Below are positions 6,337-40,909 of a DNA stretch of 48,134 nucleotides, in pieces. This stretch comes from a virus (taxonomy: Duplodnaviria > Heunggongvirae > Uroviricota > Caudoviricetes). The stretch is from the IMG/VR virus record IMGVR_UViG_2651869782_000034. One strand, given 5' to 3'. The notes beneath the pieces are model-generated. The model was not told where the DNA came from and searched no databases. It saw only the letters and a program-made list of their open reading frames with translations. Numbering within the stretch: the first letter of the stretch is position 1; each line of letters opens with the position of its first letter. The position numbers were made by a program, and so were the translations under genes.

Positions 6337-6660
6337 CTATGCGGCCTTATCTACATTTCTGAACCAAACGCAGATCGGACCGTCTTCTGTATCGTGAATC
6401 GAACCGACAAACCATCCTTCTCCATCTGGCATGCTTGGCTCCCATCCACTGATGTTTGGATTCCCATCTTCAAAATACGCGTCAATTACCGTTTGATTGT
6501 TGTCGTTTTCCATTTCAACAATTGATGATTCAATGCCATGCTGCTTGCAGAAAGATCTGAACTCATCAACTGAAATTACCTCTCTATCCCCAAACAGGTT
6601 GGCGTATTCTGGGTGCGTCCAGTAGCCATCCTCGCTTCGCTCTACTACTAATGCTTCCAT
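6337..6660 (-). CDS. Hypothetical protein
   Basis: GAGGTG RBS directly upstream of ATG 6660. Confidence 0.5.
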   Translation of the reverse strand: MEALVVERSEDGYWTHPEYANLFGDREVISVDEFRSFCKQHGIESSIVEMENDNNQTVIDAYFEDGNPNISGWEPSMPDGEGWFVGSIHDTEDGPICVWFRNVDKAA

Positions 6661-6668
6661 ATCTCACC

Positions 6669-6995
6669 TCAAATAAGTGGTTTGCTGCCTAATTTCATTT
6701 TCTGGCGACCAACACAAGTCACACCCATTTCACTGCGTGGCTTGCTGTACCTTGTGCGCTGATTCTTGCGCTCAATACGTTGCAGGTTGCTTTCAATCTG
6801 TTCGTGGTATTCAGCCAGCACCGTAAGGTCTATCGGATTCAGTGCGCTTTCTACTCGTGATTTCGGTTTGCGATTCAGCGAGAGAATAGGGCGGTTAACT
6901 GGTTTAGCGCTTACCCCAACCAACAGGGGATTTGCTGCTTTCCATTGAGCCTGTTTCTCTGCGCGACGTTCGCGGCGGCGTGTTTGTGCATCCAT
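6669..6995 (-). CDS. N: Antitermination protein N (lambda-type)
   Basis: MDAQTRRRERRAEKQAQWKAANPLLVGVSAKPVNRPILSLNRKPKSRVESALNPIDLTVLAEYH matches lambda N including arginine-rich motif. Confidence 0.9.
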   Translation of the reverse strand: MDAQTRRRERRAEKQAQWKAANPLLVGVSAKPVNRPILSLNRKPKSRVESALNPIDLTVLAEYHEQIESNLQRIERKNQRTRYSKPRSEMGVTCVGRQKMKLGSKPLI

Positions 6996-7105
6996 CTGGA
7001 TTCTCCTGTCAGTTAGCTTTGAGTAACGCGCCGTGATGCTTATCTCCACGGTTGCTGTCTTGCAGCTGCATTTCGCGCTACTCAAAGCTTTCTGCTTTGA
7101 ATGCT

Positions 7106-7137
7106 GCCCTTCTTCAGGGCTTAATTTTTAAGAGCCT
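7106..7137 (-). promoter_or_regulatory. nutL (boxA GGCTCTTAA, boxB GCCCTGAAGAAGGGC)
   Basis: Minus-strand read gctcttaaaaattaagccctgaagaagggcagca matches lambda nutL; boxB is a perfect hairpin. Confidence 0.85.
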
Positions 7138-7139
7138 CA

Positions 7140-7265
7140 CCTTCAATGGTGGTTAGTGCATCCTGCTGATGGCTAAATAGTACGATTTGTACTTTATCGA
7201 GTCAATACAAAATGTTCTAAATATAATTGGTTTTTTATAACGCTTTGTATTTAATGGGTTTATAT
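7140..7265 (-). promoter_or_regulatory. pL/OL region with palindromic operator candidates
   Basis: Palindrome AGTACgatttGTACT at 7179-7193 and ACAAAATGT at 7206-7214; unlike lambda OL. Confidence 0.5.
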
Positions 7266-7267
7266 TT

Positions 7268-7300
7268 TGGAAAAAGAAAACCCGACACTAAGGTCGGGTT
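7268..7300 (-). terminator. Terminator downstream of cI
   Basis: Minus-strand hairpin CCCGACCTTAGTGTCGGG followed by TTTTCTTTTT. Confidence 0.6.
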
Positions 7301-7330
7301 ATTGTTGTGTGCTTTAGAGTGGTGAGGCTG

Positions 7331-7990
7331 TTAACTAAATGTCTCTTCAGGCCACTGGCTGGCGATAACTTTCCCTACAACGGAACAGCTATCATTGCAT
7401 GGGATCATTGGATATTGCGGGTTTAGTGGCTGTAGGAACACCTGACCGCTATCCCTGATCAGTTTCTTGAAGGTAAACTCGTCACCACCAAGTCTGGCTA
7501 TGCAGAAATCACCTGGCTCAACAGCCTGCTCAGGGTCAACGAGAATTAACATCCCGTCAGGAAAGCTTGGCTTGGATCCTGTTGGCGCGGTCATGGAATT
7601 ACCTTCAACTTCAAGCCAGAACGCACAATCACTGGCTTTTTTGGTTGTGCTGACCCATCTCTCCGCATCACCTTTGGTAAAGGTTCTAAGCTCAGGCGAG
7701 AACATCCCGGCCTGAACATGAGAAAAAACAGGGTACTCATATTGTTTTTTAACGGGGGCAGATGAGTATTCGCCAACAGGTGAAAATGTACCGTCGTGGT
7801 TGAATGAGACGTTATCAATACCAAGGTATTTAAACACCACACCAATCTCGTCAAGAGATGGATGACGAGATCCGCGCAACCAGTGACCAATTCCACCCTG
7901 CGTCATACCAAGCTCTTCAGCTAACTTCTCTTGAGTTATGCCGAGCTCTTTCATTCTGGATCTAGCCAGTTCATACCATTTCATTTTCAT
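7331..7990 (-). CDS. cI: CI-type prophage repressor, hybrid: heterologous HTH N-domain plus lambda-type S24 C-terminal domain
   Basis: C-terminal [30 protein letters not shown]...[11 protein letters not shown] matches lambda cI; N-terminal [37 protein letters not shown] is a different XRE-type HTH. Confidence 0.9.
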
Positions 7991-8101
7991 ACCCTTATTA
8001 TTACGCTCTGTACTAAAACCATCCATGCACAAGATGTATTTTTTGTTTGCATTCTAAAAGTACATATCGTATTATTGTTTCATGGTTACTATGGAGGGCA
8101 T
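7991..8101. promoter_or_regulatory. OR / pRM / pR divergent control region
   Basis: Between divergent cI and cro; AGTACatatcGTATT and ACAAGATGT operator-like sequences; candidate pR -35 TTTGCA / -10 TATTAT. Confidence 0.55.
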
Positions 8102-8317
8102 ATGAGCAACCTACGAAAATATCGAGAGTCACTGAATATCTCTCAAACAACACTTGCTAAGGCAGTTGGATGCACACAGGGAGCTATCGGACATTGGGAA
8201 TCTGGTCGTCGCTTCCCAGACCTTAAAACATGCCGTGCTCTTGTTGAGTGCCTAAACAAGTTAGGCGCAAAAGTCAGTCTTGATGACGTGTTCCCGCCGG
8301 AACACAAAGCCGCTTAA
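8102..8317 (+). CDS. cro: Cro-like HTH repressor
   Basis: GGAGGG RBS; 71-aa HTH ORF divergent from cI, followed by nutR. Confidence 0.75.
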   Translation: MSNLRKYRESLNISQTTLAKAVGCTQGAIGHWESGRRFPDLKTCRALVECLNKLGAKVSLDDVFPPEHKAA

Positions 8318-8326
8318 GACATTCTA

Positions 8327-8357
8327 GCTCTTACACATCCCCGCCCTGGAAAAGGGC
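8327..8357 (+). promoter_or_regulatory. nutR (boxA GCTCTTACA, boxB GCCCTGGAAAAGGGC)
   Basis: agctcttacacatccccgccctggaaaagggc closely matches lambda nutR. Confidence 0.85.
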
Positions 8358-8433
8358 ATTACCAGAAACAAATCTCTATGGTTTTGCGTTTCTTTGCGAA
8401 GCCAACTCTATCTAATCATTAAGGAAATTATCT

Positions 8434-8715: not shown

Positions 8716-8749
8716 TGTAGAAAAACTGGATCAATCCACAGGAGTAATT

Positions 8750-8917
8750 ATGACAAAACGTCGTAAGAAATACCAGGAAAAAGAAGAGATTCGACACCCT
8801 GATTCACCTGAGGGATTAGTGGTAGCCGCAGCAAATAACAGGGCGTTCGCAGAGCGCCTTGTTGGTGTTTACAGACTAGCCAAAGCAGGAGTGAAACATG
8901 GGCGTCGTTAAGTTAGC
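8750..8917 (+). CDS. Small basic ORF (55 aa) between cII and replication gene
   Basis: AGGAG RBS 6 nt upstream of ATG 8750; MTKRRKKYQEKEEIRHPDSPEG...; overlaps the 8898 start option of the next gene. Confidence 0.3.
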
Positions 8918-9788
8918 TGATTACAGGCATAACCCTGTACAACATCAGGAGGCATCCAGTATGGGGTATGTCTCTATACACCGCCAGTTTATGGACAGCA
9001 GGCTCTATAAGGACTCTCAGGCAGTACATCTTTGGCTTCACTTAATCCTCAAGGCTAATCACGAATCTACTGTCGTCAATACGTATATCGGTCCGATAAC
9101 TGTTGATCGCGGTCAGATGATAACTGGACGCCCGTCGCTGGTCAGAGAAACATTCATCCCCGACAACAAAGTTCGGAGCTTATTACGGACTTTTGAGTCG
9201 AAAGGGATGCTTAATATTTGCTCGATGGGGAAGAAATTTAGCCTGTTTACAATCGTTAAATATGACGATTTTCAGGCAAAAAATTGTCCAACGGTTGTCC
9301 AACGGTTGTCCAACGCAAACACCAGTAATGGCGCGGCTCTCAGCGGAGATTGTCCAACTGTTGTCCAACGGTTGTCCATAAACAATAATATAAATAATAT
9401 CTCTAATACTGACGTATTAGAGAGTGCCACAGCAGACAAAAAGTCTGACAAGAAAAAACCTCCCGTCAGCTGTCAGGATGTTGTCGATGCTTACCACGAA
9501 ATCCTTCCTGAAGCGCCAAGAATCCGCGCACTGAATGACAAGCGTAAAAACCAGATCCGAACGTTCTGGCGCAAAGCCGGAGTGATAACCCGCCAGCTTG
9601 ACGGGCATGGGTTCACGATGCAGGACTGGAGAAATTATTTGAGCTACGTAGGCGAAAATTGCCGATGGATGTTCGAAGAGCGTCCAAACCATCAACGCGG
9701 AACCGTCTGGCACAAAAAGGGATTTGATTTCCTGCTTAACGACAATACCTACCTGAAAGTTCGTGAGGGTGAACACGATGACCGATAA
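8898..9788 (+). CDS. Replication initiator (O-like / P22 gp18-like) containing origin iterons
   Basis: Position after cII, internal iterons and AT-rich tract; alternative start ATG 8961 with AGGAGG RBS. Confidence 0.75.
   Translation: MGVVKLADYRHNPVQHQEASSMGYVSIHRQFMDSRLYKDSQAVHLWLHLILKANHESTVVNTYIGPITVDRGQMITGRPSLVRETFIPDNKVRSLLRTFESKGMLNICSMGKKFSLFTIVKYDDFQAKNCPTVVQRLSNANTSNGAALSGDCPTVVQRLSINNNINNISNTDVLESATADKKSDKKKPPVSCQDVVDAYHEILPEAPRIRALNDKRKNQIRTFWRKAGVITRQLDGHGFTMQDWRNYLSYVGENCRWMFEERPNHQRGTVWHKKGFDFLLNDNTYLKVREGEHDDR
9284..9420 (+). repeat. Replication origin: six 11-bp iterons TTGTCCAACGG in two clusters plus AT-rich tract
   Basis: ttgtccaacggttgtccaacggttgtccaacgc ... ttgtccaactgttgtccaacggttgtccata then aaacaataatataaataatat. 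Confidence 0.8.
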
Positions 9789-11214
9789 TTTTTATGCGCC
9801 GCCCCATAGCATCGAGGCAGAGCAGGCGGTGATTGGTGGATTACTTCTGGATGATGACAGCAGTGAGCGCGTCCAGAAAGTTCTGGCGATGCTGAAGCCT
9901 GATTCATTTTACAGCCGACCACACAAAATCATTTTCGAAGAAATAACCAGAATGCACCGGGAGCAAAAGCCAGTAGATGGCCTGACGCTTTTCGATGAAC
10001 TGGAGCGCAAATCGTTAACGGCGTCTGTTGGCGGTTTTGCTTATATCGCTGAGATCGCAAAGAACACGCCAAGCGCAGCAAACATCGTTGCCTATGCAAT
10101 GCAGGTTCGTGAAACCGCAATGGAACGCTACGCCATCAACCGCATGACTGAAGCGACGGAATTGCTCTATTCCCGCAACGGAATGACTGCAACGCAGAAG
10201 TACGAAGCTATTCAGGCGATTTTCACGCAACTGACAGACCATGCAAAAACCGGATCGCGTCGCGGCCTTCGCTCATTTGGTGAGGTCATGGAAGACTGGG
10301 TTAGCGACCTTGAGAAGCGATTTGACCCGTCAGGCGAACAACGAGGAATGAGCACAGGGATCCCATCTCTGGACAGGATGCTGTCACCGAAAGGTCTGGT
10401 GAAAGGCTCTCTGTTCGTCATTGGCGCTCGCCCTAAGATGGGGAAAACGACGCTATACAGCCAGATGGCAATCAACTGCGCAGTGCATGAGAAAAAGCCC
10501 GCTCTGATGTTCAGTCTTGAAATGCCAGGCGACCAGATACTGGAAAAGCTGGTAGGGCAGAAGTCTGGTGTTAACCCGAATATTTTTTACCTTCCGGCGA
10601 CAAATGACGCCGATGACGGCTATCAGGGTGATTACGATGGTGACTTCAACATGGCGATCGAAACAGCCAATCGCTTGAGTGAAATCGACCTGCTTTACAT
10701 CGACGACACGCCTGGATTATCTCTGGCTCAAATCTTCAGCGAAAGCCGTCGAATCAAGCGAGAAAAAGGATGTGTTGGGATGATTCTGGTCGATTACCTG
10801 ACACTAATGACCGCTGAGAAAGCCGATCGTAACGACCTTGCTTACGGCATGATCACCAAAGGACTGAAGAACCTTGCCAAAGAGCTTGATTGCGTTGTTG
10901 TGCTTCTGACGCAGCTTAACCGCGCACTGGAAAGCCGAACCAATAAACGCCCATTACCAAGTGACTCGCGCGATACAGGGCAGATTGAACAGGATTGCGA
11001 TTATTGGGTGGGGATCCATCGTGAAGGTGCTTTTGATGACAGTGTTCCGCCTGGTGAAACCGAACTAATCCTTCGTCTCAATCGTCATGGAAATACCGGC
11101 ACGGTGTATTGCATTCAGGCAAATGGCGCTATTTATGACACAGACCAACAGTCTGCTGAAATGCGCCGCCGTGAACGCGAGGAACCGCAGTCCAAGAAGA
11201 AAGGAGGATTCTGA
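9778..11214 (+). CDS. Replicative DNA helicase (DnaB family, P22 gene 12-like)
   Basis: Walker A GARPKMGKTT, DnaB N- and C-domains; ATG 9778 overlaps upstream stop. Confidence 0.9.
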   Translation: MTDNFYAPPHSIEAEQAVIGGLLLDDDSSERVQKVLAMLKPDSFYSRPHKIIFEEITRMHREQKPVDGLTLFDELERKSLTASVGGFAYIAEIAKNTPSAANIVAYAMQVRETAMERYAINRMTEATELLYSRNGMTATQKYEAIQAIFTQLTDHAKTGSRRGLRSFGEVMEDWVSDLEKRFDPSGEQRGMSTGIPSLDRMLSPKGLVKGSLFVIGARPKMGKTTLYSQMAINCAVHEKKPALMFSLEMPGDQILEKLVGQKSGVNPNIFYLPATNDADDGYQGDYDGDFNMAIETANRLSEIDLLYIDDTPGLSLAQIFSESRRIKREKGCVGMILVDYLTLMTAEKADRNDLAYGMITKGLKNLAKELDCVVVLLTQLNRALESRTNKRPLPSDSRDTGQIEQDCDYWVGIHREGAFDDSVPPGETELILRLNRHGNTGTVYCIQANGAIYDTDQQSAEMRRREREEPQSKKKGGF

Positions 11215-11244
11215 TGACCATCTACATCACTGAGCTAATAACAG

Positions 11245-11271
11245 GGGCTATTTACACAGTAGCCCTTTTTT
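11245..11271 (+). terminator. tR2-like rho-independent terminator
   Basis: Hairpin GGGCTA-tttacacag-TAGCCC followed by TTTTTT. Confidence 0.65.
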
Positions 11272-11298
11272 ATTGGATTAAGAACTAGGGGGATCCTA

Positions 11299-11511
11299 AT
11301 GGACACCGTTAACGGAATGTGTTCAGACGCACCGCGTGCCAAAAAATGTAAATGCGGAAAATCACCGACAATATTCGACATGGAGAACGGGTGCCAAATC
11401 TACTGCGCTAACCACGCTGCTGTGGCGGCCGCGAATTATCGCAGTGCGGTAACGGAGTGGAATAACCTGAAATCTGTTAGAGAGGGAAGTCATGAAAAAA
11501 CTAACCTTTGA
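11299..11511 (+). CDS. Hypothetical Cys-rich protein
   Basis: 70-aa ORF with CKCG...CANH motif; overlaps ninB start. Confidence 0.5.
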   Translation: MDTVNGMCSDAPRAKKCKCGKSPTIFDMENGCQIYCANHAAVAAANYRSAVTEWNNLKSVREGSHEKTNL

Positions 11512-11932
11512 AATTCGATCTCCAGCACATCAGCAAAACGCTATTCACGCAGTACAGCAAATCCTTCCAGACCCAACCAAACCAATCGTAGTAACCATTC
11601 AGGAACGCAACCGCAGCTTAGACCAGAATCGGAAGCTTTGGGCTTGCCTTGGTGACGTTTCGCGTCAGGTTGAATGGCATGGTCGCTGGCTGGATGCAGA
11701 AAGCTGGAAGTGTGTGTTTACCGCAGCATTAAAGCAGCAGGATGTTGTTCCTAACCTTGCCGGGAATGGCTTTGTGGTAATAGGCCAGCCAACCAGCAGG
11801 ATGCGTGTAAGCGAATTTGCGGAGCTATTAGAGCTTATACAGGCATTCGGTACAGAGCGTGGCGTTAAGTGGTCAGACGAAGCGCGACTGGCTCTCGAAT
11901 GGAAAGCGCGATGGGGAGATCGGGCAGCATGA
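11492..11932 (+). CDS. ninB: NinB (Orf-family recombination mediator)
   Basis: MKKLTFEIRSPAHQQNAIHAVQQILPDPTKPIVVTIQERNRSLDQNRKLWACLGDV matches lambda NinB. Confidence 0.9.
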   Translation: MKKLTFEIRSPAHQQNAIHAVQQILPDPTKPIVVTIQERNRSLDQNRKLWACLGDVSRQVEWHGRWLDAESWKCVFTAALKQQDVVPNLAGNGFVVIGQPTSRMRVSEFAELLELIQAFGTERGVKWSDEARLALEWKARWGDRAA

Positions 11933-15764: not shown

Positions 15765-15839
15765 GGGTCAGTCGTATAAAGGTCATTACGGAAGGCTGTT
15801 AACCTTCTTATCGTGGTTCGAGTCCACGCTGTCCCGCCA
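15765..15839 (+). tRNA. tRNA-Asn-like (anticodon GUU), slightly degenerate stems
   Basis: Anticodon arm GAAGG-CTGTTAA-CCTTC, T arm CGTGG-TTCGAGT-CCACG, 3' CCA; one mismatch each in acceptor and D stems. Confidence 0.5.
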
Positions 15840-15844
15840 AATAT

Positions 15845-15920
15845 GCTGGTTTAGCTCCAATGGTAGAGCAGTCGCCTTGTAAGCGAATGGGTAGCGGTTC
15901 AAGTCCGTTAACCAGCACCA
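15845..15920 (+). tRNA. tRNA-Thr (anticodon UGU)
   Basis: Perfect 7-bp acceptor stem GCTGGTT/AACCAGC, D arm GCTC..GAGC with GG, anticodon loop CTTGTAA, T loop TTCAAGT, discriminator A plus CCA. Confidence 0.75.
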
Positions 15921-32832: not shown

Positions 32833-32928
32833 TAATGCAAGCATTTTGTTTTGGTTTTATGCTTGCTTGTATGTGTGTACAGTGCATATAATGCAAGCAT
32901 ACATCACAATAAAGGTGCTTGCATTATG
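32833..32928. promoter_or_regulatory. Four copies of near-palindromic motif ATGCAAGCAT / ATGCTTGCAT in a divergent promoter region
   Basis: taATGCAAGCATt (32833-44), ATGCTTGC (32859-66), taATGCAAGCATa (32889-900), GCTTGCATta (32916-26) overlapping ATG 32926. Confidence 0.55.
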
Positions 32929-33918
32929 ACTGAAAAGAAAAGTGGCGAAGGGAAAGCTAAGGGCGGTATCGCTCGCGCAAAGTCGCTGACTAAAGAGCAG
33001 CGTTCTGAAATAGCAAAGAAAGCAGCGGCTGCAAGATGGAAGGATAAACCATTAATTGCTACGCATAAGGGATCGTTCCAGCATGAATTCGGGATTGATG
33101 TTGAGTGCTATGTGTTAAATGATGATAACAAAACTGCCGTTATTAGCCAGAGAGGCATGGGAGAAGCGATTGGTCTTGGCGAAGGTGGCAGCAGGTTGCC
33201 AAAGTTTATTCAGGGGAAAACTATTTCTCAGTATATCGGGCATGAATTAAGGGCAAAACTTGAAAATCCTCTTATTTTTCAATACAAACAGGCGGGCACG
33301 AACACTCCAGCTAATCCTGTAATACATGGCTACGATGTAACAATATTAATTGATTTATGTCGAGCAATCTCTAATGCTAAAGCTGAAGGTAAGTTGCTTT
33401 CCAGTCAGGAAGGGATTGCTAAGCAAGCCAGAATCATTATTGATGCATCAGCCAAGGCGGGCATTCAGGGGCTTGTTTATGCTTTGGCAGGGTATGACAG
33501 AACAAAAGAAGAGGTAATTCAAGCATATAAGCGATATGTTGCTGAAGAGGCTCGTGAGTATGAAAGAGAGTTCACCCCTGAACTTTATGAGCATTGGTAT
33601 CGTCTGTATGGTATAGACAAACCAGTTAGAGGGCGACCATGGGCGTTTAAATATCTTACGATAGATCACATTTATTACCCATTAGCCAGAAGTGAAGGAA
33701 AGGTATTTAATTTAGCAAAAACGTCAAAAGAAGAAAAAGGCAGCAAAAACGATAAAATACACCAGTTTTTATCAGAGGTTGGAGTTAAGGCTCTTAGAAC
33801 CCAAATAGGTAAGGTTACTGGTATTGCAATGGTTTCTGATACTCGAGAAGAGTATGAGAAATACATAGATGAAAAGGTTATTGGACAAAGAACCATAGAC
33901 TTAAAAGATAAAGAATAA
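32926..33918 (+). CDS. Hypothetical 330-aa protein with basic N-terminal segment (possible DNA-binding)
   Basis: MTEKKSGEGKAKGGIARAKSLTKEQRSEIAKKAAAARW; start codon lies inside an operator-like repeat. Confidence 0.55.
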   Translation: MTEKKSGEGKAKGGIARAKSLTKEQRSEIAKKAAAARWKDKPLIATHKGSFQHEFGIDVECYVLNDDNKTAVISQRGMGEAIGLGEGGSRLPKFIQGKTISQYIGHELRAKLENPLIFQYKQAGTNTPANPVIHGYDVTILIDLCRAISNAKAEGKLLSSQEGIAKQARIIIDASAKAGIQGLVYALAGYDRTKEEVIQAYKRYVAEEAREYEREFTPELYEHWYRLYGIDKPVRGRPWAFKYLTIDHIYYPLARSEGKVFNLAKTSKEEKGSKNDKIHQFLSEVGVKALRTQIGKVTGIAMVSDTREEYEKYIDEKVIGQRTIDLKDKE

Positions 33919-33971: not shown

Positions 33972-34508
33972 TCAAACAACCCACCAGTTTGCCTGATTGG
34001 ATGCCAGCCTTGCAGTTTTTATGGAATTAATTATGCCATGCTCAAGAGCCTTGTTAGCATCCAAAATGGTCGAGTCTGCTATCAGGGATGCCCACCTAAT
34101 ATGGGTTCCGATGTCGATATTGAACGTCTCAACGAAGCGATCAAGATCGTTATCGAGGCATTTCCCGTACTCTCTCAATCTGGCATGGTCGGCGGCTGGG
34201 GAGGCAAAGCACCATAATAGAGGATGTAACAGGAATCTTGATAATGGGTTTGCGAAACGTTCTGAGCCAGCCAGGAAAACGATATTAGCTATGGATTCAA
34301 CATTGCTTATGTTGTGAGTTCTAACGGTAACAGGGAGTGACTTAAGAAAGTTATACGCAGTAAAGCCAGCGGCAGTTTCCCCTCCCTGACTTGATATATG
34401 GATATTTAATTCAGTTGCGCCTTGAGATAATGCGGTGAGACAGTGGTTCTGAAGTTGCCCAACAGTGGCAGTGTTAACGGGGCATAAGAAATGAATTGTG
34501 TGCAGCAT
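33972..34508 (-). CDS. Clp-fold serine protease (ClpP-like, short form)
   Basis: HISSQGG vs ClpP INSPGG; ES-IANIVFLAG aligns to the ClpP active-site Ser; LLHPL aligns to MIHQP His; ATG overlaps mnt stop (TAATG). Confidence 0.7.
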   Translation of the reverse strand: MLHTIHFLCPVNTATVGQLQNHCLTALSQGATELNIHISSQGGETAAGFTAYNFLKSLPVTVRTHNISNVESIANIVFLAGSERFANPLSRFLLHPLLWCFASPAADHARLREYGKCLDNDLDRFVETFNIDIGTHIRWASLIADSTILDANKALEHGIINSIKTARLASNQANWWVV

Positions 34509-34756
34509 TATTTTTCATCCTTAGCATACATGGTCTTTAGCGTCTCAAGCAGCGCCTCTTTGAATTTGTCAGCTTCTTGCTGAGCAAATGACTCAACTGA
34601 CTTTGGCGACCTATCTTCATCAATCGCGGCTTGCAAAATCATGACGATCTCGGAGTTAACAGAGCGACCATTTTTTGATGCTCTGACAGCAAGAGCCTCG
34701 CGTAAAGATTCAGGGATTCTTACCGTAGTTGGAGAAATTGACACACCCTTTGCCAT
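34508..34756 (-). CDS. mnt: Mnt-like ribbon-helix-helix repressor
   Basis: RIPESLREALAVRASKNGRSVNSEIVMILQAAI and C-terminal coiled coil parallel P22 Mnt; divergent from arc. Confidence 0.8.
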   Translation of the reverse strand: MAKGVSISPTTVRIPESLREALAVRASKNGRSVNSEIVMILQAAIDEDRSPKSVESFAQQEADKFKEALLETLKTMYAKDEK

Positions 34757-34779
34757 ATCACACCTTTGGTATTCAATTT

Positions 34780-34834
34780 GATAGCAAAGTGTATGCAAAA
34801 AAATTTTGACTAGATATACTCACTTTGCTATCTT
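34780..34834. promoter_or_regulatory. immI control region: inverted 12-bp repeats GATAGCAAAGTG / CACTTTGCTATC flanking candidate Pant
   Basis: Repeats at 34780-34791 and 34821-34832; -35 TTGACT 34806-11 and -10 TATCTT 34829-34. Confidence 0.55.
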
Positions 34835-34870
34835 TTGTATTCGAAAAGAGTTGTTTGTGTGGAGGGTAAC

Positions 34871-35023
34871 ATGGAGAAAGAAATAAGTAAGATTTTGGTA
34901 AGGATGCCGCAGTCGTTAAAGGATGCTATAGGTAGCAGGGCAAAGGAAGAGTGCAGGTCGTTTAACTCAGAGGTTATCAAGCGCCTGATAGACAGCTTGA
35001 AGAGAGAGGGGGTAATGGTATGA
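34871..35023 (+). CDS. arc: Arc-like ribbon-helix-helix repressor
   Basis: MEKEISKILVRMPQSLKDAIGSRAKEECRSFNSEVIKRLIDSLKREG parallels P22 Arc. Confidence 0.75.
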   Translation: MEKEISKILVRMPQSLKDAIGSRAKEECRSFNSEVIKRLIDSLKREGVMV

Positions 35024-35223
35024 GTAAAGAATGTTGTTTCTGCGGCATTAGCGAATCAGACGCTGATCAAACATACATTTACTCTAAAGAAACAGGTCGG
35101 ATGCTGTGTAGTGACTGCGTGTTGGACATCATAAGATACAAGCATCTTGGATGTTCTGCCAGCATTAGCAATATAGGTGAAGTATATGAAGGGAAAGATA
35201 TAACTGATAGAGCAGAAAGTTGA
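35020..35223 (+). CDS. Small zinc-ribbon-like protein between arc and ant
   Basis: Two Cys pairs (CCFCG ... CSDC); ATG overlaps arc stop. Confidence 0.45.
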   Translation: MSKECCFCGISESDADQTYIYSKETGRMLCSDCVLDIIRYKHLGCSASISNIGEVYEGKDITDRAES

Positions 35224-35285
35224 AGCCCCAACTGCGGTAACAGTCAGGGCTTCGGTATCAACAAATCGTCTTAGGAAATATTGAC

Positions 35286-36164
35286 ATGAAAAGTATAGCA
35301 AAGGCACAAAACGATTTCACCATCTTCAAATTCGGCGACAGTGAAATCCGCGTCATCAACAAGTGCGGTGAGCCGTGGTTTGTAGCTAAAGATGTTTGTG
35401 ATGCTTTAGCTTTGACTAACTCACGCAAGGCGCTTACTGCACTTGATGACGATGAAAAGGGAGTAACTTTAAGTTACACCCTTGGTGGTGAGCAGAATCT
35501 AAGCATTGTGAGCGAATCAGGTATGTATACATTGGTTCTGCGCTGCCGCGATGCAGTCAATAAAGGTTCAGTCCCGCACAAATTCCGCAAGTGGGTAACA
35601 GCAGAAGTTCTGCCTTCAATTCGCAAACATGGCGAGTATGTTAAAGGAAAGAAAACCACTGTTGAGGAAAGAACACCGCTACGCGATGCAGTAAACATGC
35701 TGGTAGGAAAGAAAGGACTTCGCTATGACGATGCATACAATATGGTTCATCAGCGTTTTGGTATTGACAGCATTGATGAACTTTCAATTGAACAAATCCC
35801 GCAAGCTGTAGAGTACATCCACAGGGTAGTGCTTGAAGGTGAGTTCATCGGCAAACAAGAGAAGAAAACCAACGAGCTTTCTGCAAAAGAAGCAAACAGC
35901 CTTGTATGGTTATGGGATTATGCCAACCGCTCACAGGCATTATTCCGCGAACTGTATCCGGCGCTAAAACAAATTCAATCGAACTATTCCGGCAGATGTC
36001 ATGACTGCGGTTATGAGTTCTCCCGTATTATCGATATGGCGAGAGATGTTTTAATCAACCATACACGAGATGTTGATATTAATGAGCCAGACGGACCAAC
36101 GAATCTTTCCGCATGGATGAGACTTAAGAATAAAGAATTACCTCCTTCAGTACATAACTACTGA
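35286..36164 (+). CDS. ant: Antirepressor Ant (Bro-N domain)
   Basis: Bro-N motif [30 protein letters not shown]; follows arc as in P22 immI. Confidence 0.85.
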
Positions 36165-36182
36165 CAGATAACCAACGCAACG

Positions 36183-36207
36183 ACCCAGCTTCGGCTGGGT
36201 TTTTTTA
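36183..36207 (+). terminator. Rho-independent terminator after ant
   Basis: ACCCAGC-ttcg-GCTGGGT followed by TTTTTTT. Confidence 0.65.
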
Positions 36208-36264
36208 TGCCCAAAATTCACCGTAGCCATGCTGCGGCGATTCCTTGTATCTGGAGCAAATTAA

Positions 36265-38427
36265 ATGACAGACATTACAGCCAATGTTGTAGTGAGTATG
36301 CCTTCGCAACTCTTCACTATGGCGCGCTCTTTTAAAGCCGTAGCCAATGGCAAAATTTATATCGGAAAAATTGACACTGACCCGGTAAATCCAGAAAACC
36401 AGATCCAGGTTTATGTGGAGAACGAAGATGGCTCTCATGTTCCTGTTTCGCAACCAATCATCATTAACGCTGCTGGTTACCCGGTATATAACGGACAAAT
36501 TGCCAAATTCGTTACTGTACAGGGCCATTCTATGGCTGTTTATGATGCATACGGTGCGCAGCAGTTTTATTTCCCTAATGTGTTGAAGTATGAGCCGGAT
36601 CAATTAAGGTTGGAGCTTGAATCATCTGGTGGAGCAGGATTGATAGGTGGTGTTTCGAAGCCTATTACTTTTTTTGGTGCTATTGGTGATGGATTAACAA
36701 ACAATACGCAGGCATTTAACGATGCAGAGATATTAGAATTCAATGACATCTACATTCCTGATGGTGTTTATAATGTAAATAATATTAACTTAAATAAGAG
36801 ATATTGGGGGCCTGGCATAGTAGTGATTAATTACCAGACTGAATATTCTGGCTCTGGTGTTAACGACATGACCGTGTCAGGAATATACAATGGACAGCAA
36901 GATCTAAATGCAATTGTAAGAATAAAAGAAGCTTCAAATCCTGATAAGCTTGAATTCAGTACAGATAATGGAGTTACATGGCATGACACGATAGACGTGT
37001 ACAATCCAATCGATGACAGTGTATCTCCGCAACCAATCGTAATACTTGCAGGCGGGGTGGATTTTTTCGTGAGTGGATTGAAGATAAACTTTTCTTCAAC
37101 CACTGGACATACAGTAAATGACTCATGGTCATTTTTCATTCCTTCCAATCCATCAGTAATAAACACGGGAAGTGGCAGCATCGTTAAATCAGGAAGCGTT
37201 ATTTTTAATGTTAGCGGAAACAATGATACTAATACTTCCGCTGGAAAAGACTCATTAGGCGGTGGAAACGTAGGAGCTAACAATACCGCATATGGGTGGA
37301 AGAGTTTGCACTCAAACACTACAGGATACGCAAATACCGCGTCTGGGATTCAGTCTATGGAAAACAATAAGACTGGTAAAAACAATTGTGCATACGGTGC
37401 TGATTCTCTAAGAGCTAACGTATCTGGTTCTGATAACGTAGCGGTTGGGGTCTTTGCGTCCGGAGCAAACACAACCGGGTACGGTAACACTGGACTTGGT
37501 AACGATGCCAATAGGTACAATGAAACAGGATTCGGAAATACCGCAGCGGGTGTGCAGGCACTGTACCACAACAAGGCCGGTAATGAGAACACAGCTTTCG
37601 GTGAATACGCATTACGCGGAGGAAATTCCAGCCTACCTACGGGAACATCCATTCAGTATTCCGTCGCTGTAGGAGCTAAAGCCGGTTTCAACGCGTTAGG
37701 TAATAATAATACAGCTATAGGTTACGAGGCGCTATATTCTGCATCAGGATCTGATAATGTTGGTATTGGATTCGATGCAGGGTTTAAAGTAACGGCTGGT
37801 GCTTTCAATGTATTTTTAGGTTCTAATTCTGGTAACGGGTCAGAGCAGGCTACAGATGTGACAAACTGCGTCCTTATCGGAGATAATACAAAATCAACCG
37901 GAAGTAACGCAGTAGCTATCGGTAGTGGGGTAATTGCCGCTCAGAATACTGTAGCTATAGGTAATAGTGAGCATGAATTATTCTTGCATTATGGGAAATT
38001 TATACCACAAATTGATAATGCTTTTGATATTGGTGGGCCGGATGCGAGATATAAAACAATATATGCAACTACAGGAATGATAAATACATCAAATGAAATG
38101 TTGAAAACAAAACTAACAGACATTGATGTTGCTGAAAAAAAAGCTGCACTAGAAATAAAAGATAATATTAAAAAGTTTAAGATGCTGGATTCTGTTGAGG
38201 TAAAGGGATTTGATGGTGCTAGGTGGCATTTTGGTGTTGGAGCTCAAACTGTTGGTAATATAATGAGGAAGCACGGACTTGATCCTAGTAAGTATGGGTT
38301 TTGGTGTCACGATAAAACGCATCGCGAACACATGACTGGAAATATAGATATCTTTTGTGAAAGTTATGGTATAAGATATGACGAACTTGCAATGTTTATA
38401 TTGGCATCAATATCTTTATGTGAATAA
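36265..38427 (+). CDS. Tailspike: P22-type head-binding N-domain, repeat-rich beta-helix, C-terminal S74-like chaperone domain
   Basis: [11 protein letters not shown]...[19 protein letters not shown]...VTVQGHSMA matches P22 gp9 N-domain; NTAxGxxAL repeats; SNEMLKTK near C-terminus. Confidence 0.9.
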
Positions 38428-38499
38428 ACTTTGTAAATGAAGTGAATTGCAAATCCTTGTACTTGATTGCAAGGCTTTGTGCTCTTCGATAATGGTTAA

Positions 38500-38519
38500 G
38501 GTGGATCACTCCACCTTTT
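38500..38519 (+). terminator. Candidate terminator ending the late operon
   Basis: GGTGGA-tcac-TCCACC followed by TTTT. Confidence 0.5.
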
Positions 38520-39150
38520 CATCAATCCAGTCCGCCCACCACTGCATCATTTCTCTGCGCTTAACGTAGCGGATGCCTCACTATCACACGGTGATAGTCC
38601 ATTGCTGCTTTGAAGAATGGATAGAGAACTGAGGATAAAAAGATATCCCAAAACCCAAAATCTCATCTTTAGGATTTGCAGAAAGGTAGGCGTGAACAAA
38701 TACCTGCGCATGAAAACGGAACTAGTCCAGATGTGATGTTTGTGGTGATCACATACATCATTAACGATGCTCGTTATGGTGAGTTTGATGACTACCCGCT
38801 GAAGTGAAAATTGTGTTGTGTACCAAATTGCGTACCAAACTAAAATCACAAATCATGAAACCCTTGTTCATGGCGGTTCTTAGGGGTGTTGCGCGTAATC
38901 GTGAAACAAAAAGGTAGATTGTTGCTTACCGTCATTCATCATTAGGTTAAATCCGTTATTTCTGCTGTCTGCCAGAGTATCAAATATCACCGTGCTAATC
39001 AGCTTTAGCGCGACAATTTGGCAGCGAGTGGCAACAGATCATGTCAGATAAAAATGAGGTAGTAGTCACATTTTCTTGCACTTTATTCCAGCCAGTTCAT
39101 AAGTATTTCCGTAAAAAGAACAGCTATTTGAAACACCTGAGGGTTTGCTG

Positions 39151-40317
39151 TTGAAACGCCGTCTTATTATTGCTGCTTCTTTGTTCGTTTTTAATTTATC
39201 GTCTGGTTTTGCGGCGGAAAACATTCCTTTTTCACCTCAGCCTCCAGAGATTCATGCCGGGTCCTGGGTATTGATGGATTACACCACCGGTCAGATTCTC
39301 ACCGCGGGTAATGAGCATCAACAGCGCAATCCCGCCAGCCTGACAAAGCTGATGACGGGCTATGTCGTGGATCGTGCTATCGATAGTCATCGCATTACGC
39401 CAGACGATATTGTCACCGTGGGGCGCGATGCGTGGGCGAAAGATAATCCGGTGTTTGTCGGTTCTTCACTGATGTTTCTGAAAGAGGGCGATCGCGTATC
39501 GGTACGTGATTTAAGCCGTGGTTTAATTGTGGATTCCGGAAATGACGCTTGTGTTGCTCTGGCTGACTATATTGCCGGTGGGCAACGGCAGTTTGTTGAA
39601 ATGATGAACAACTATGCCGAGAAGCTGCATCTCAAGGATACGCATTTTGAAACAGTGCATGGTCTGGATGCACCTGGCCAGCATAGCTCGGCTTATGATT
39701 TAGCTGTGCTTTCTCGCGCTATCATCCACGGCGAGCCCGAGTTTTATCATATGTACAGTGAGAAAAGCCTCACCTGGAACGGTATCACTCAGCAAAACCG
39801 TAACGGGTTATTGTGGGATAAAACCATGAATGTTGACGGCCTGAAAACGGGTCATACTTCTGGTGCCGGGTTTAATCTCATTGCTTCGGCTGTGGATGGG
39901 CAGCGTCGTCTCATTGCAGTGGTAATGGGGGCTGACAGTGCAAAAGGTCGTGAGGAAGAGGCAAGAAAATTACTGCGTTGGGGGCAACAAAACTTTACTA
40001 CGGTGCAAATTTTGCACCGTGGGAAAAAGGTCGGAACGGAACGCATCTGGTATGGCGATAAAGAAAATATCGCCCTGGGAACGGAACAAGAGTTCTGGAT
40101 GGTGCTACCGAAAGCCGAAATTCCACATATCAAAGCCAAATATACCCTTGATGGTAAAGAACTCACCGCGCCAATTAGCGCCCATCAGCGGGTAGGGGAA
40201 ATTGAACTTTATGACCGTGATAAACAGGTGGCGCACTGGCCGCTGGTTACCCTGGAATCTGTCGGGGAAGGCAGCATGTTTTCCCGGCTGAGTGATTATT
40301 TCCACCATAAGGCCTGA
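39151..40317 (+). CDS. dacD: D-alanyl-D-alanine carboxypeptidase DacD (PBP6b)
   Basis: Signal peptide and SxxK, SGN, KTG penicillin-binding motifs; sequence recognised as E. coli DacD; TTG start. Confidence 0.9.
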   Translation: MKRRLIIAASLFVFNLSSGFAAENIPFSPQPPEIHAGSWVLMDYTTGQILTAGNEHQQRNPASLTKLMTGYVVDRAIDSHRITPDDIVTVGRDAWAKDNPVFVGSSLMFLKEGDRVSVRDLSRGLIVDSGNDACVALADYIAGGQRQFVEMMNNYAEKLHLKDTHFETVHGLDAPGQHSSAYDLAVLSRAIIHGEPEFYHMYSEKSLTWNGITQQNRNGLLWDKTMNVDGLKTGHTSGAGFNLIASAVDGQRRLIAVVMGADSAKGREEEARKLLRWGQQNFTTVQILHRGKKVGTERIWYGDKENIALGTEQEFWMVLPKAEIPHIKAKYTLDGKELTAPISAHQRVGEIELYDRDKQVAHWPLVTLESVGEGSMFSRLSDYFHHKA

Positions 40318-40435
40318 CCTTTCTTTTGCAGCAGACTGGCAGGAGTGCGAGTCTGCTCGCATAATCAACACTCATTCCTTGTGGTTTTAATATTGCAACT
40401 ATACTGTATATAAAAACAGTGTTAGTGGAGGCGTT

Positions 40436-40909
40436 ATGAACTACGAGATTAAGCAGGAAGATAAACGTACCGTTGCAGGTTTCCATCTTGTTGGCCCGTG
40501 GGAGCAGACGGTAAAGAAAGGTTTTGAGCAGTTGATGATGTGGATAGATAGCAAAAATATTGTGCCGAAGGAGTGGGTTGCTGTCTATTACGACAATCCG
40601 GATGAAACACCCGCCGAAAAATTACGCTGCGACACCGTCGTGACGGTACCGAATAACTTTACGCTCCCCGAAAACAGTGAGGGCGTCATTCTGACAGAAA
40701 TTTCAGGTGGTCAGTATGCGGTGGCGGTGGCTCGTGTAGTCGGTGATGATTTTGCTAAACCCTGGTATCAGTTCTTTAATAGCCTCTTGCAGGACAGTGC
40801 CTATGAAATGTTACCAAAGCCCTGCTTCGAGGTTTACTTGAACAATGGCGCGGAAGATGGGTACTGGGATATCGAAATGTATGTTGCGGTGCAGCCAAAA
40901 CATCACTAA
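40436..40909 (+). CDS. sbmC: DNA gyrase inhibitor SbmC (GyrI)
   Basis: [39 protein letters not shown] recognised as SbmC. Confidence 0.9.

Follow-up and report, generated by a model that had tools for sequence, protein, structure and literature searches.

A phage repressor gene in which lambda-type and foreign DNA meet raises the question of whether a new immunity specificity has been made there. The locus in question lies at 6.7 to 8.7 kb of a 48,134-nucleotide (nt) virus record (IMG/VR IMGVR_UViG_2651869782_000034; the whole stretch is called the window below) and contains N, cI, cro and cII. An earlier note on this DNA had described a distinct immunity specificity created by domain swapping in the repressor cI. 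The region is very probably the primary immunity (immC) switch of a P22-like Escherichia coli prophage and of the VT2-Sakai immunity type. As judged by comparison with related sequences, the mosaic structure of cI relative to lambda is real, and the immunity type had already been sequenced and annotated, so that no new specificity is present.

Repressor mosaic and immunity type

The cI protein of 219 amino acids (aa) consists of an N-terminal helix-turn-helix (HTH) domain (aa 1 to 83) and an S24 self-cleaving C-terminal domain (aa 84 to 219). It was compared with lambda positions 34000-40500 and their annotation, the reference used throughout. In the C-terminal domain, 133 of 136 residues were the same as in lambda and the 23 nt differences were mostly synonymous (94.3% nt identity over 7337-7741), in agreement with the proposal that this half of cI is lambda-like. 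The homology stopped abruptly at 7741/7742, indicating that the junction had been placed correctly, near 7730 to 7750, by the earlier note. In the codon-level alignment, identity with lambda begins at TATGAGTACCC, ten residues ahead of the Ala-Gly cleavage site, and the adjoining 249 nt of N-terminal coding sequence had no nt similarity to lambda. In the alignment with lambda, the cleavage site A94-G95 corresponds to A111-G112, and the catalytic residues S132 and K175 correspond to S149 and K192. Since the C-terminal domain differs from that of lambda at three residues alone, lambda-like dimerisation, cooperativity and RecA-dependent cleavage would be expected.

The N-terminal domain had been called a different HTH, which was true at the DNA level but not at the protein level, where it shows remote homology to the HTH of the lambda repressor (E about 7e-4 to 5e-3). 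A protein-level search gave PDB matches to the lambda repressor N-terminal domain. In the HMMER alignment, lambda Gln33, Glu34, Asp38 and Gln44 correspond to Gln20, Glu21, Glu25 and Gln31 of cI, and lambda Ser45, Ala49 and Asn52 to Gly32, His36 and Arg39. The activation patch is plausibly kept, and the base-contacting helix altered, relative to lambda.

The repressor has close relatives. In a tblastn search of 50,697 phage records, the whole cI protein was 100% identical in Dewey, vB_EcoP-683R2, vB_EcoP-720R6 and phi458 and 98.6% identical in Louie. More than 50 further records were 97.2% identical, among them the Stx1-converting phage AP005153, Stx2 II, Nil2, 2851, YYZ-2008, 1717, ev207 and the PA series. 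The N-terminal domain was 95 to 96% identical across the VT2-Sakai immunity group, including VT2-Sakai itself, which is the Stx2 phage Sp5. Compared with the Stx1 phage, only residues 47, 48 and 61 of this domain are changed; all three lie outside the HTH, whose residues are identical. Cro was 98.6% identical to that of the Stx1 phage, 2851 and ev207, and 98.6 to 100% identical across the phages sharing cI. At the DNA level, 7331-8317 was 93.0% identical to VT2-Sakai 10900-11886, and the left operator region (OL, 7158-7268) was 78% identical to that of VT2-Sakai. VT2-Sakai thus differs from the window by about 7% of nt in cI-cro and by 22% in OL.

By sequence comparison, the region belongs to the VT2-Sakai group in its cI recognition helix, operator set and Cro. 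It does not belong to imm lambda: no nt similarity to lambda was found in 7172-7272 or 7742-8317, and the operators are of the form AGTAC-N5-GTACT, whereas those of lambda are 17-bp sites of the TATCACCGC type. Because the immunity region of VT2-Sakai, the Stx1-converting phage and Nil2 is matched in the N-terminal domain, in all six operators and in Cro, the specificity is not a new one. The earlier claim of a distinct immunity made by domain swapping was therefore right about the non-lambda DNA-binding domain, operators and cro and about the sharp junction, but the specificity itself was already known. The note had set its reading against a full match to one known immunity region with no sign of a junction; the region does match a known one, yet the junction with lambda exists. 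What the swap did was to join two modules, a pre-existing one comprising the N-terminal domain, the operators and cro and a shared C-terminal one; it did not create the specificity.

Within the VT2-Sakai group (AP005153, Stx2 II, Nil2, 2851, YYZ-2008, 1717, ev207 and PA), the promoters PR and PRM and the right operator region (OR) have the same 111-bp layout as in the window. The PR hexamers of VT2-Sakai are TTGTAT/TATTTT, compared with TTGCAT/TATTAT in the window. The Stx phages carry another N and extra open reading frames (ORFs) between OL and cI, whereas the window has lambda-type N and nutL and a terminator alone; the virion is of the Stx-phage type in the VT2-Sakai relatives and P22-like in the window. 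Dewey, Louie, 683R2, 720R6 and phi458 share the entire block of lambda-type N, OL, cI, OR and cro at 97.6 to 98.9% nt identity and differ from the window in flanking modules only (cII, replication and left-arm genes). The six operators of Louie are identical to those of the window.

In the deposited VT2-Sakai record (AP000363), codon 31 of cI, which corresponds to lambda Gln44, is a TAG stop, compared with CAG in the Stx1 phage. Because of this TAG, the VT2-Sakai cI is annotated as a truncated 510-nt ORF; its annotation reads 'similar to CI repressor of bacteriophage lambda'.

Table 1. Features of the immunity region and of the second, immI-like region (window coordinates; a dot marks features given without strand)
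Feature	Position	Strand	Basis and remarks
N antiterminator, 108 aa, lambda type	6669..6995	-	Pfam N36, E=1.5e-26
Lambda-like start of PL transcript	7083..7171	-	94.4% nt to lambda 35496-35583
nutL	7106..7136	-	boxB 7106-7120 GCCCTGAAGAAGGGC, as in lambda; boxA 7129-7136 GGCTCTTA, 7/8
Predicted PL	7177..7205	-	-35 TTGACT 7205-7200, 17 nt spacer, -10 TACTAT 7182-7177; promoter scan
OL1, AGTACGATTTGTACT	7179..7193	.	perfect palindrome, 0 mismatches; overlaps PL -10 and spacer
OL2, AATACAAAATGTTCT	7204..7218	.	2 mismatches; centre is ACAAAATGT; pattern scan and relatives
OL3, ATAACGCTTTGTATT	7237..7251	.	3 mismatches; pattern scan and relatives
Intrinsic terminator after cI	7279..7300	-	terminator scan
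cI repressor, 219 aa	7331..7990	-	Pfam HTH_3, E=8.3e-11 (residues 11-58); Peptidase_S24 PF00717, E=8.9e-29
Lambda-type C-terminal domain module	7337..7741	-	94.3% nt, ungapped, to lambda 37233-37637; PDB 3bdn, E=2e-96
Mosaic junction with lambda	7741..7742	.	codon Tyr84 (lambda Tyr101); nt alignment
VT2-Sakai-type specificity module (cI N-terminal domain, OR, cro)	7742..8317	.	VT2-Sakai match
Predicted PRM	7997..8025	-	-35 TGGATG 8025-8020, 17 nt spacer, -10 AATAAT 8002-7997
OR3, ATTACGCTCTGTACT	8000..8014	.	1 mismatch; centred -17 of predicted PRM
OR2, TGCACAAGATGTATT	8026..8040	.	3 mismatches; centre is ACAAGATGT; centred -43 of predicted PRM
Predicted PR	8047..8075	+	-35 TTGCAT, 17 nt spacer, -10 TATTAT; promoter scan
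OR1, AGTACATATCGTATT	8059..8073	.	1 mismatch; overlaps PR spacer and -10
cro, 71 aa, all-helical HTH_3 type	8102..8317	+	Pfam HTH_3, E=1.4e-12
nutR	8326..8357	+	boxA 8326-8333 AGCTCTTA, 7/8; boxB 8343-8357 GCCCTGGAAAAGGGC, 14/15
TTGC-N6-TTGC repeat	8384..8397	-	where lambda has the cII-binding site of PRE; from alignment, putative
cII, 93 aa	8434..8715	+	Pfam Phage_CII, E=7.6e-30
Arc/Mnt-like ribbon-helix-helix ORF	34508-34798	-	immI-like region
Arc-like ORF	34835-35023		immI-like region
Antirepressor (ant)	35286-36164		Bro-N and P22_AR_C domains; immI-like region

Operators, promoters and the proposed switch

OL and OR have three operators each, and all six are members of one family, A(G/A)TAC-N5-GTA(C/T)T. 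The scan pattern was AGTAC-N5-GTACT with up to 3 mismatches, and the mismatch counts in Table 1 are relative to it. The six matches cluster in the intergenic stretches 7172-7272 and 7991-8102 (about 212 bp), in which about 0.5 would be expected. The 48-kb window has just three matches with fewer than 2 mismatches, all of them in these two stretches. Enrichment over the whole window was rejected as evidence: 114 matches with up to 3 mismatches were found against 110.7 expected, which is not significant and leaves the clustering and the sites with few mismatches as the sole informative part. The half-site consensus was W-W-A-R-T-A-C-R, and the A and C of TAC were invariant in all 12 half-sites.

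The six sites occur in the same order and spacing in the window, VT2-Sakai, ev207, Nil2 and Louie, and the three OR sites also in the Stx1 phage. The centre spacings were 25 and 33 bp at OL and 26 and 32 to 33 bp at OR in the window and its relatives. Apart from one base in OL3, the half-sites are identical to those of the VT2-Sakai group. When the two OR variants were compared, none of the 30 half-site positions differed, whereas differences were present at 3 of the 15 positions in the operator centres and at 14 or more of the 73 remaining ones. The Stx1-phage record AP005153 annotates three putative 17-bp OR operators, whose counterparts in the window are TATTACGCTCTGTACTA, ATGCACAAGATGTATTT and AAGTACATATCGTATTA. 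The window sites also match the list of VT2-Sa operators in PMC10742460 Table S1, in which OL1 is given as TAGTACGATATGTACTT; VT2-Sa operators were used in PMC9803871 as well. In vitro, lambda cI bound the VT2-Sa operators weakly, with an apparent dissociation constant of 3.7 to 6.4 uM versus 0.2 to 0.35 uM for its own OL1/OR1 (PMC10742460).

The four palindromes that the earlier note had pointed out all exist and are unlike those of lambda, AGTACGATTTGTACT and AGTACATATCGTATT being OL1 and OR1. They are not of two kinds, however, but are four of the six members of one family. An ACA-N3-TGT motif as a second kind of site, for example a Cro-specific one, was rejected: OL2 has ACAAAATGT at its centre and OR2 has ACAAGATGT, and the bases at the centre differ from one relative to another. 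An alternative OR2 nearer to OR1 (8035-8049, TGTATTTTTTGTTTG) was also rejected, matching 5 of 10 half-site positions in a stretch that is not conserved in the VT2-Sakai variant.

The geometry of the predicted promoters resembles that of lambda. OL1 and OR1 are centred at -16 of PL and PR (-17 in lambda), and relative to the predicted PRM, OR2 lies at -43 and OR3 at -17, compared with -42 and -19 as computed from the lambda record. The +1 position predicted for PRM from this geometry is the A of the cI ATG at 7990, consistent with a leaderless mRNA as in lambda. The same PRM elements are annotated as a putative maintenance promoter in AP005153. A leftward TAGAAT promoter for cI at about 8051-8056 was rejected as the maintenance promoter since it has no usable -35 and would be blocked by OR1 and OR2. 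Further features of layout shared with lambda are the three operators at each of OL and OR, the divergent PRM and PR and the TTGC repeat of a putative PRE. The centre distance between OR1 and OR2 is 33 bp in the window and 32 bp in VT2-Sakai but 24 bp in lambda, a difference of 9 bp or about one helical turn. Because of this longer spacing, the -35 of PR sits between OR1 and OR2 and not under OR2. A C-terminal domain of the lambda type would here be working with OR1 and OR2 one helical turn more widely separated.

Upstream in-frame starts of cI (231 or 233 aa) are less likely than the 219-aa start, as the extension would hold OR3 and the -10 of PRM. The few differences from the Stx1 phage in this extension are non-synonymous, which was counted against the upstream starts.

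Cro and the cI N-terminal domain are paralogues that have 35% identity and a common TQGxIGHW recognition helix, and in this respect the region resembles 434 and P22, in which Cro is likewise paralogous to the repressor N-terminal domain. The Cro of lambda is of a different fold class from HTH_3 Cro.

The locus has the appearance of an ordinary, intact lysis/lysogeny switch and is apparently functional. Dimers of cI would bind the six dyad-symmetric operators of 15 to 17 bp. When bound at OL1 and OR1, cI would repress N and cro by occupying the -10 element and spacer of each of their promoters, PL and PR. At OR2, cI may activate its own synthesis from the probably leaderless PRM through the acidic helix-2 residues Glu21 and Glu25, the counterparts of lambda Glu34 and Asp38, and OR3, which overlaps PRM, would provide negative autoregulation. 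Cro, with nearly the same recognition helix as the cI N-terminal domain, probably binds the same sites. The C-terminal domain would supply dimerisation, pairwise cooperativity and RecA-stimulated self-cleavage (Ala94-Gly95, Ser132 and Lys175) as in lambda; self-cleavage and prophage induction are predicted from its 133/136 identity to the lambda domain.

Several points weigh against this reading of the locus as a working switch of the VT2-Sakai type. The close pair of sites is OR2-OR3 (26 bp) at OR and OL1-OL2 (25 bp) at OL, and OR3 fits the palindrome better than OR2. Cooperativity between OR1 and OR2 and an order of site filling in the style of lambda may therefore not carry over. The start codon of cI is uncertain, as many annotations take the upstream start (231 aa), which places OR3 and PRM within coding sequence. 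The VT2-Sa operators listed in PMC10742460 may be footprinted sites or merely predicted ones. With OL just 78% identical to that of VT2-Sakai, full homo-immunity with this phage is likely but less than certain. Sequence relationships, site conservation, domain content and geometry within the group were computed here; from these we infer binding, activation, cooperativity, cleavage and actual immunity for the exact window sequence.

The claim that N, nutL and nutR are near-identical to lambda held for N (93.3% nt) and the nutL region (94.4% nt) but not for nutR, which is conserved in its core only. N has 97 of 108 residues in common with lambda N, and the 93.3% DNA identity refers to 6694-7021 versus lambda 35062-35386. 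With residues 1 to 64 of N identical, boxB of nutL identical, boxB of nutR matching at 14 of 15 bases and both boxA sequences at 7 of 8, the N/nut system is of the lambda type. The boxB loop of nutR is GGAAA versus GAAAA in lambda, its flanks are about 65% identical, and similarity to lambda is weak (65%) from 8327 on. Both boxA sequences depart from lambda CGCTCTTA in the first base, which is G at nutL and A at nutR. A 33-bp oop-promoter linker, ACTGGATCAATCCACAGGAGTAATTATGACAAA, at 8725-8757 is 100% identical to VT2-Sakai and 91% identical to lambda; this linker is known as a high-homology region (PMC3349717).

Origin of the mosaic

Relative to lambda, the order of segments is as follows. 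From N through nutL to the beginning of the PL transcript, the DNA resembles lambda, and OL has been replaced. Next come a lambda-like terminator remnant and the lambda-like C-terminal domain, after which a second replaced part takes in the N-terminal domain, OR and cro and ends at the stop codon of cro. The lambda-like segments (N, nutL, the PL transcript start, the post-rexB terminator stretch and the C-terminal domain) are 86 to 94% identical in nt, while the cI N-terminal domain, the operators and Cro differ. Lambda homology stops at the predicted +1 of PL (about 7170; +1 in lambda is 35582), and the divergence begins upstream of the ATCAGCAGG transcript start. The terminator lies within a 36-nt stretch (7273-7308) that is 86% identical to lambda 35799-35834, just beyond rexB. 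In contrast to lambda, rexA and rexB are absent between OL and cI. This arrangement very probably reflects recombination between lambdoid phages at module boundaries, the C-terminal domain providing a stretch of common homology.

From OL to the cI stop extends a variable slot (7273-7336), with the terminator alone in the window, rexAB in lambda and orf22 in VT2-Sakai and Nil2. In ev207, this slot (867-2173) contains two unrelated ORFs, one of them DUF1828. The slot looks like a cargo (moron) insertion site.

Unequal rates without recombination, that is, diversifying selection on the DNA-binding domain beside a conserved C-terminal domain, are hardly plausible as the source of this pattern. Specificity determinants are expected to diversify, and the N-terminal domain is still a distant lambda HTH homologue in which about half of the helix-2 and helix-3 residues are common. 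On one side of the junction, however, identity is 94% including synonymous sites, while the adjoining N-terminal coding sequence has no detectable nt similarity and is about 17 codons different in length, and the change takes place within a few nt. With synonymous sites preserved to one side of this step in identity and no alignment at all to the other, rate differences cannot account for it. The same step is seen at OL, with lambda-like DNA on both sides, and patchy three-way sites in the C-terminal domain suggest further exchange.

Pairwise nt identities of the C-terminal domain were 93.9% for the window and lambda, 91.9% for the window and VT2-Sakai and 93.1% for VT2-Sakai and lambda. Because the three domains are about equidistant, the direction of exchange cannot be inferred from them. 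In the three-way comparison, the window agreed with lambda in the 5' two-thirds, and lineage-specific sites were found in the 3' third. This patchiness of the shared sites suggests repeated exchange within the C-terminal domain.

The specificity is also widespread. Among 5426 complete E. coli genomes, 776 carry the module, at 802 places in all, and 127 contain the N-cI-cro block (6660-8330, at least 80% coverage) at up to 99.8% identity. All 63 records with an N-terminal domain at least 95% identical carry a lambda-type C-terminal domain. A search of the phage records with the N-terminal domain found no donor phage with this domain on a different C-terminal domain above about 55% identity. Against this background, it is very unlikely that a new specificity was recently made by a swap of a foreign DNA-binding domain onto lambda cI, as the earlier note had proposed. 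The sharp junction at 7741/7742 and the lambda-like flanks of OL (N, nutL and the terminator remnant) do make the locus resemble lambda with two specificity patches replaced. Nevertheless, the same N-terminal domain, operators and Cro stand on the same C-terminal domain in the 776 genomes and in more than 60 phage records, one of them that of VT2-Sakai, whose sequence dates from 1999. The C-terminal DNA is 6% diverged from lambda, nearly all of it synonymous, so that the event was not recent. No donor at high identity was found, other N-terminal domains reaching about 54% identity at most. On the sequences of the relatives, the novelty part of the proposal is already refuted.

An assembly chimera or a decayed, non-functional prophage remnant is extremely improbable. 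Nothing specific speaks for it, although cI of the deposited VT2-Sakai record is interrupted by a stop codon. The N-cI-cro arrangement recurs in identical form in the independently isolated, plaque-forming Dewey, Louie, 683R2, 720R6 and phi458 and in the 127 complete genomes. In the window, the ORFs are intact, the catalytic residues are present, promoters and terminators are in place, and a complete P22-like virion and lysis set is encoded by the rest of the DNA.

The preferred reading, an exchange of modules between lambdoid phages, has parallels in the imm434 and imm21 hybrids and in modular theory, in which specificity likewise moves as a cassette of operators, DNA-binding part and cro between shared homologous sequences (PMC3349717 for the linker). 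Unlike in those hybrids, one cassette boundary here lies inside the repressor gene at the domain linker, and the non-lambda DNA forms two patches (OL; N-terminal domain, OR and cro) split by lambda-like DNA. No explicit published statement of VT2-Sa-type cI as a lambda C-terminal-domain chimera was found in a literature search that did not include Fattah et al. 2000 and Serra-Moreno et al. 2008. The chimeric structure is made known by the deposited sequences and annotations themselves.

The C-terminal domain is shared still more widely. In a search of 5.8 billion proteins, lambda-type C-terminal domains (60 to 100% identity) were joined to at least 5 N-terminal classes, all at a conserved Y-x-Y-P motif, and 3 of these classes carry C-terminal domains at least 88% identical to that of the window. 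The 405-nt C-terminal segment was present in 1207 of the 5426 genomes, at 1428 places and up to 3 per genome. Set beside the 776 genomes with the specificity module, these counts indicate that many genomes must hold two repressor genes with near-identical C-terminal domains. Co-resident heteroimmune prophages might then form mixed repressor dimers or cooperative complexes, coupling their stability and induction, and the segment might also be a recombination hotspot for immunity switching. We regard this idea as unlikely, and it may in part already be in the literature.

Prophage context and meaning

The window is mostly a P22-like E. coli prophage (similar to Sf6, CUS-3, HK620 and phiv205-1) with lambdoid early genes and a P22-type virion module. 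Host DNA begins at about 39.1 kb with a D-Ala-D-Ala carboxypeptidase gene. A second immunity region, similar to immI of P22, lies at 34508-36164 (Table 1), indicating that the immunity of the prophage is bipartite. Between the DNA-injection genes and immI, a P63C-domain ORF (32851-33918) and a ClpP-like protease ORF (33972-34508, minus strand) were found, which could be cargo or defence genes. In the tailspike (36265-38427), which resembles that of the K1-capsule-specific CUS-3, a P22 head-binding domain precedes the catalytic and chaperone domains of an endosialidase. Genes for tRNA-Asn(gtt) and tRNA-Thr(tgt) are adjacent at 15765-15920 in the prophage, downstream of the nin/Q-like region. 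Iterons of the GTTGTCCAAC type are repeated at 9284-9380 inside the O-like replication gene (8898-9788) and are presumably the phage origin.

As a discovery, the locus has little weight, since this immunity type has been in the databases since the VT2-Sakai sequence and the block is present in several isolated phages and more than 100 complete genomes. For annotation, it provides a precise map of operators and promoters and favours the 219-aa start of cI over the commonly annotated 231-aa start. It is a clean textbook case of lambdoid immunity cassettes recombining at functional boundaries, namely, the PL start, the repressor domain linker and the end of cro, and of one C-terminal dimerisation and cleavage module serving several DNA-binding specificities.

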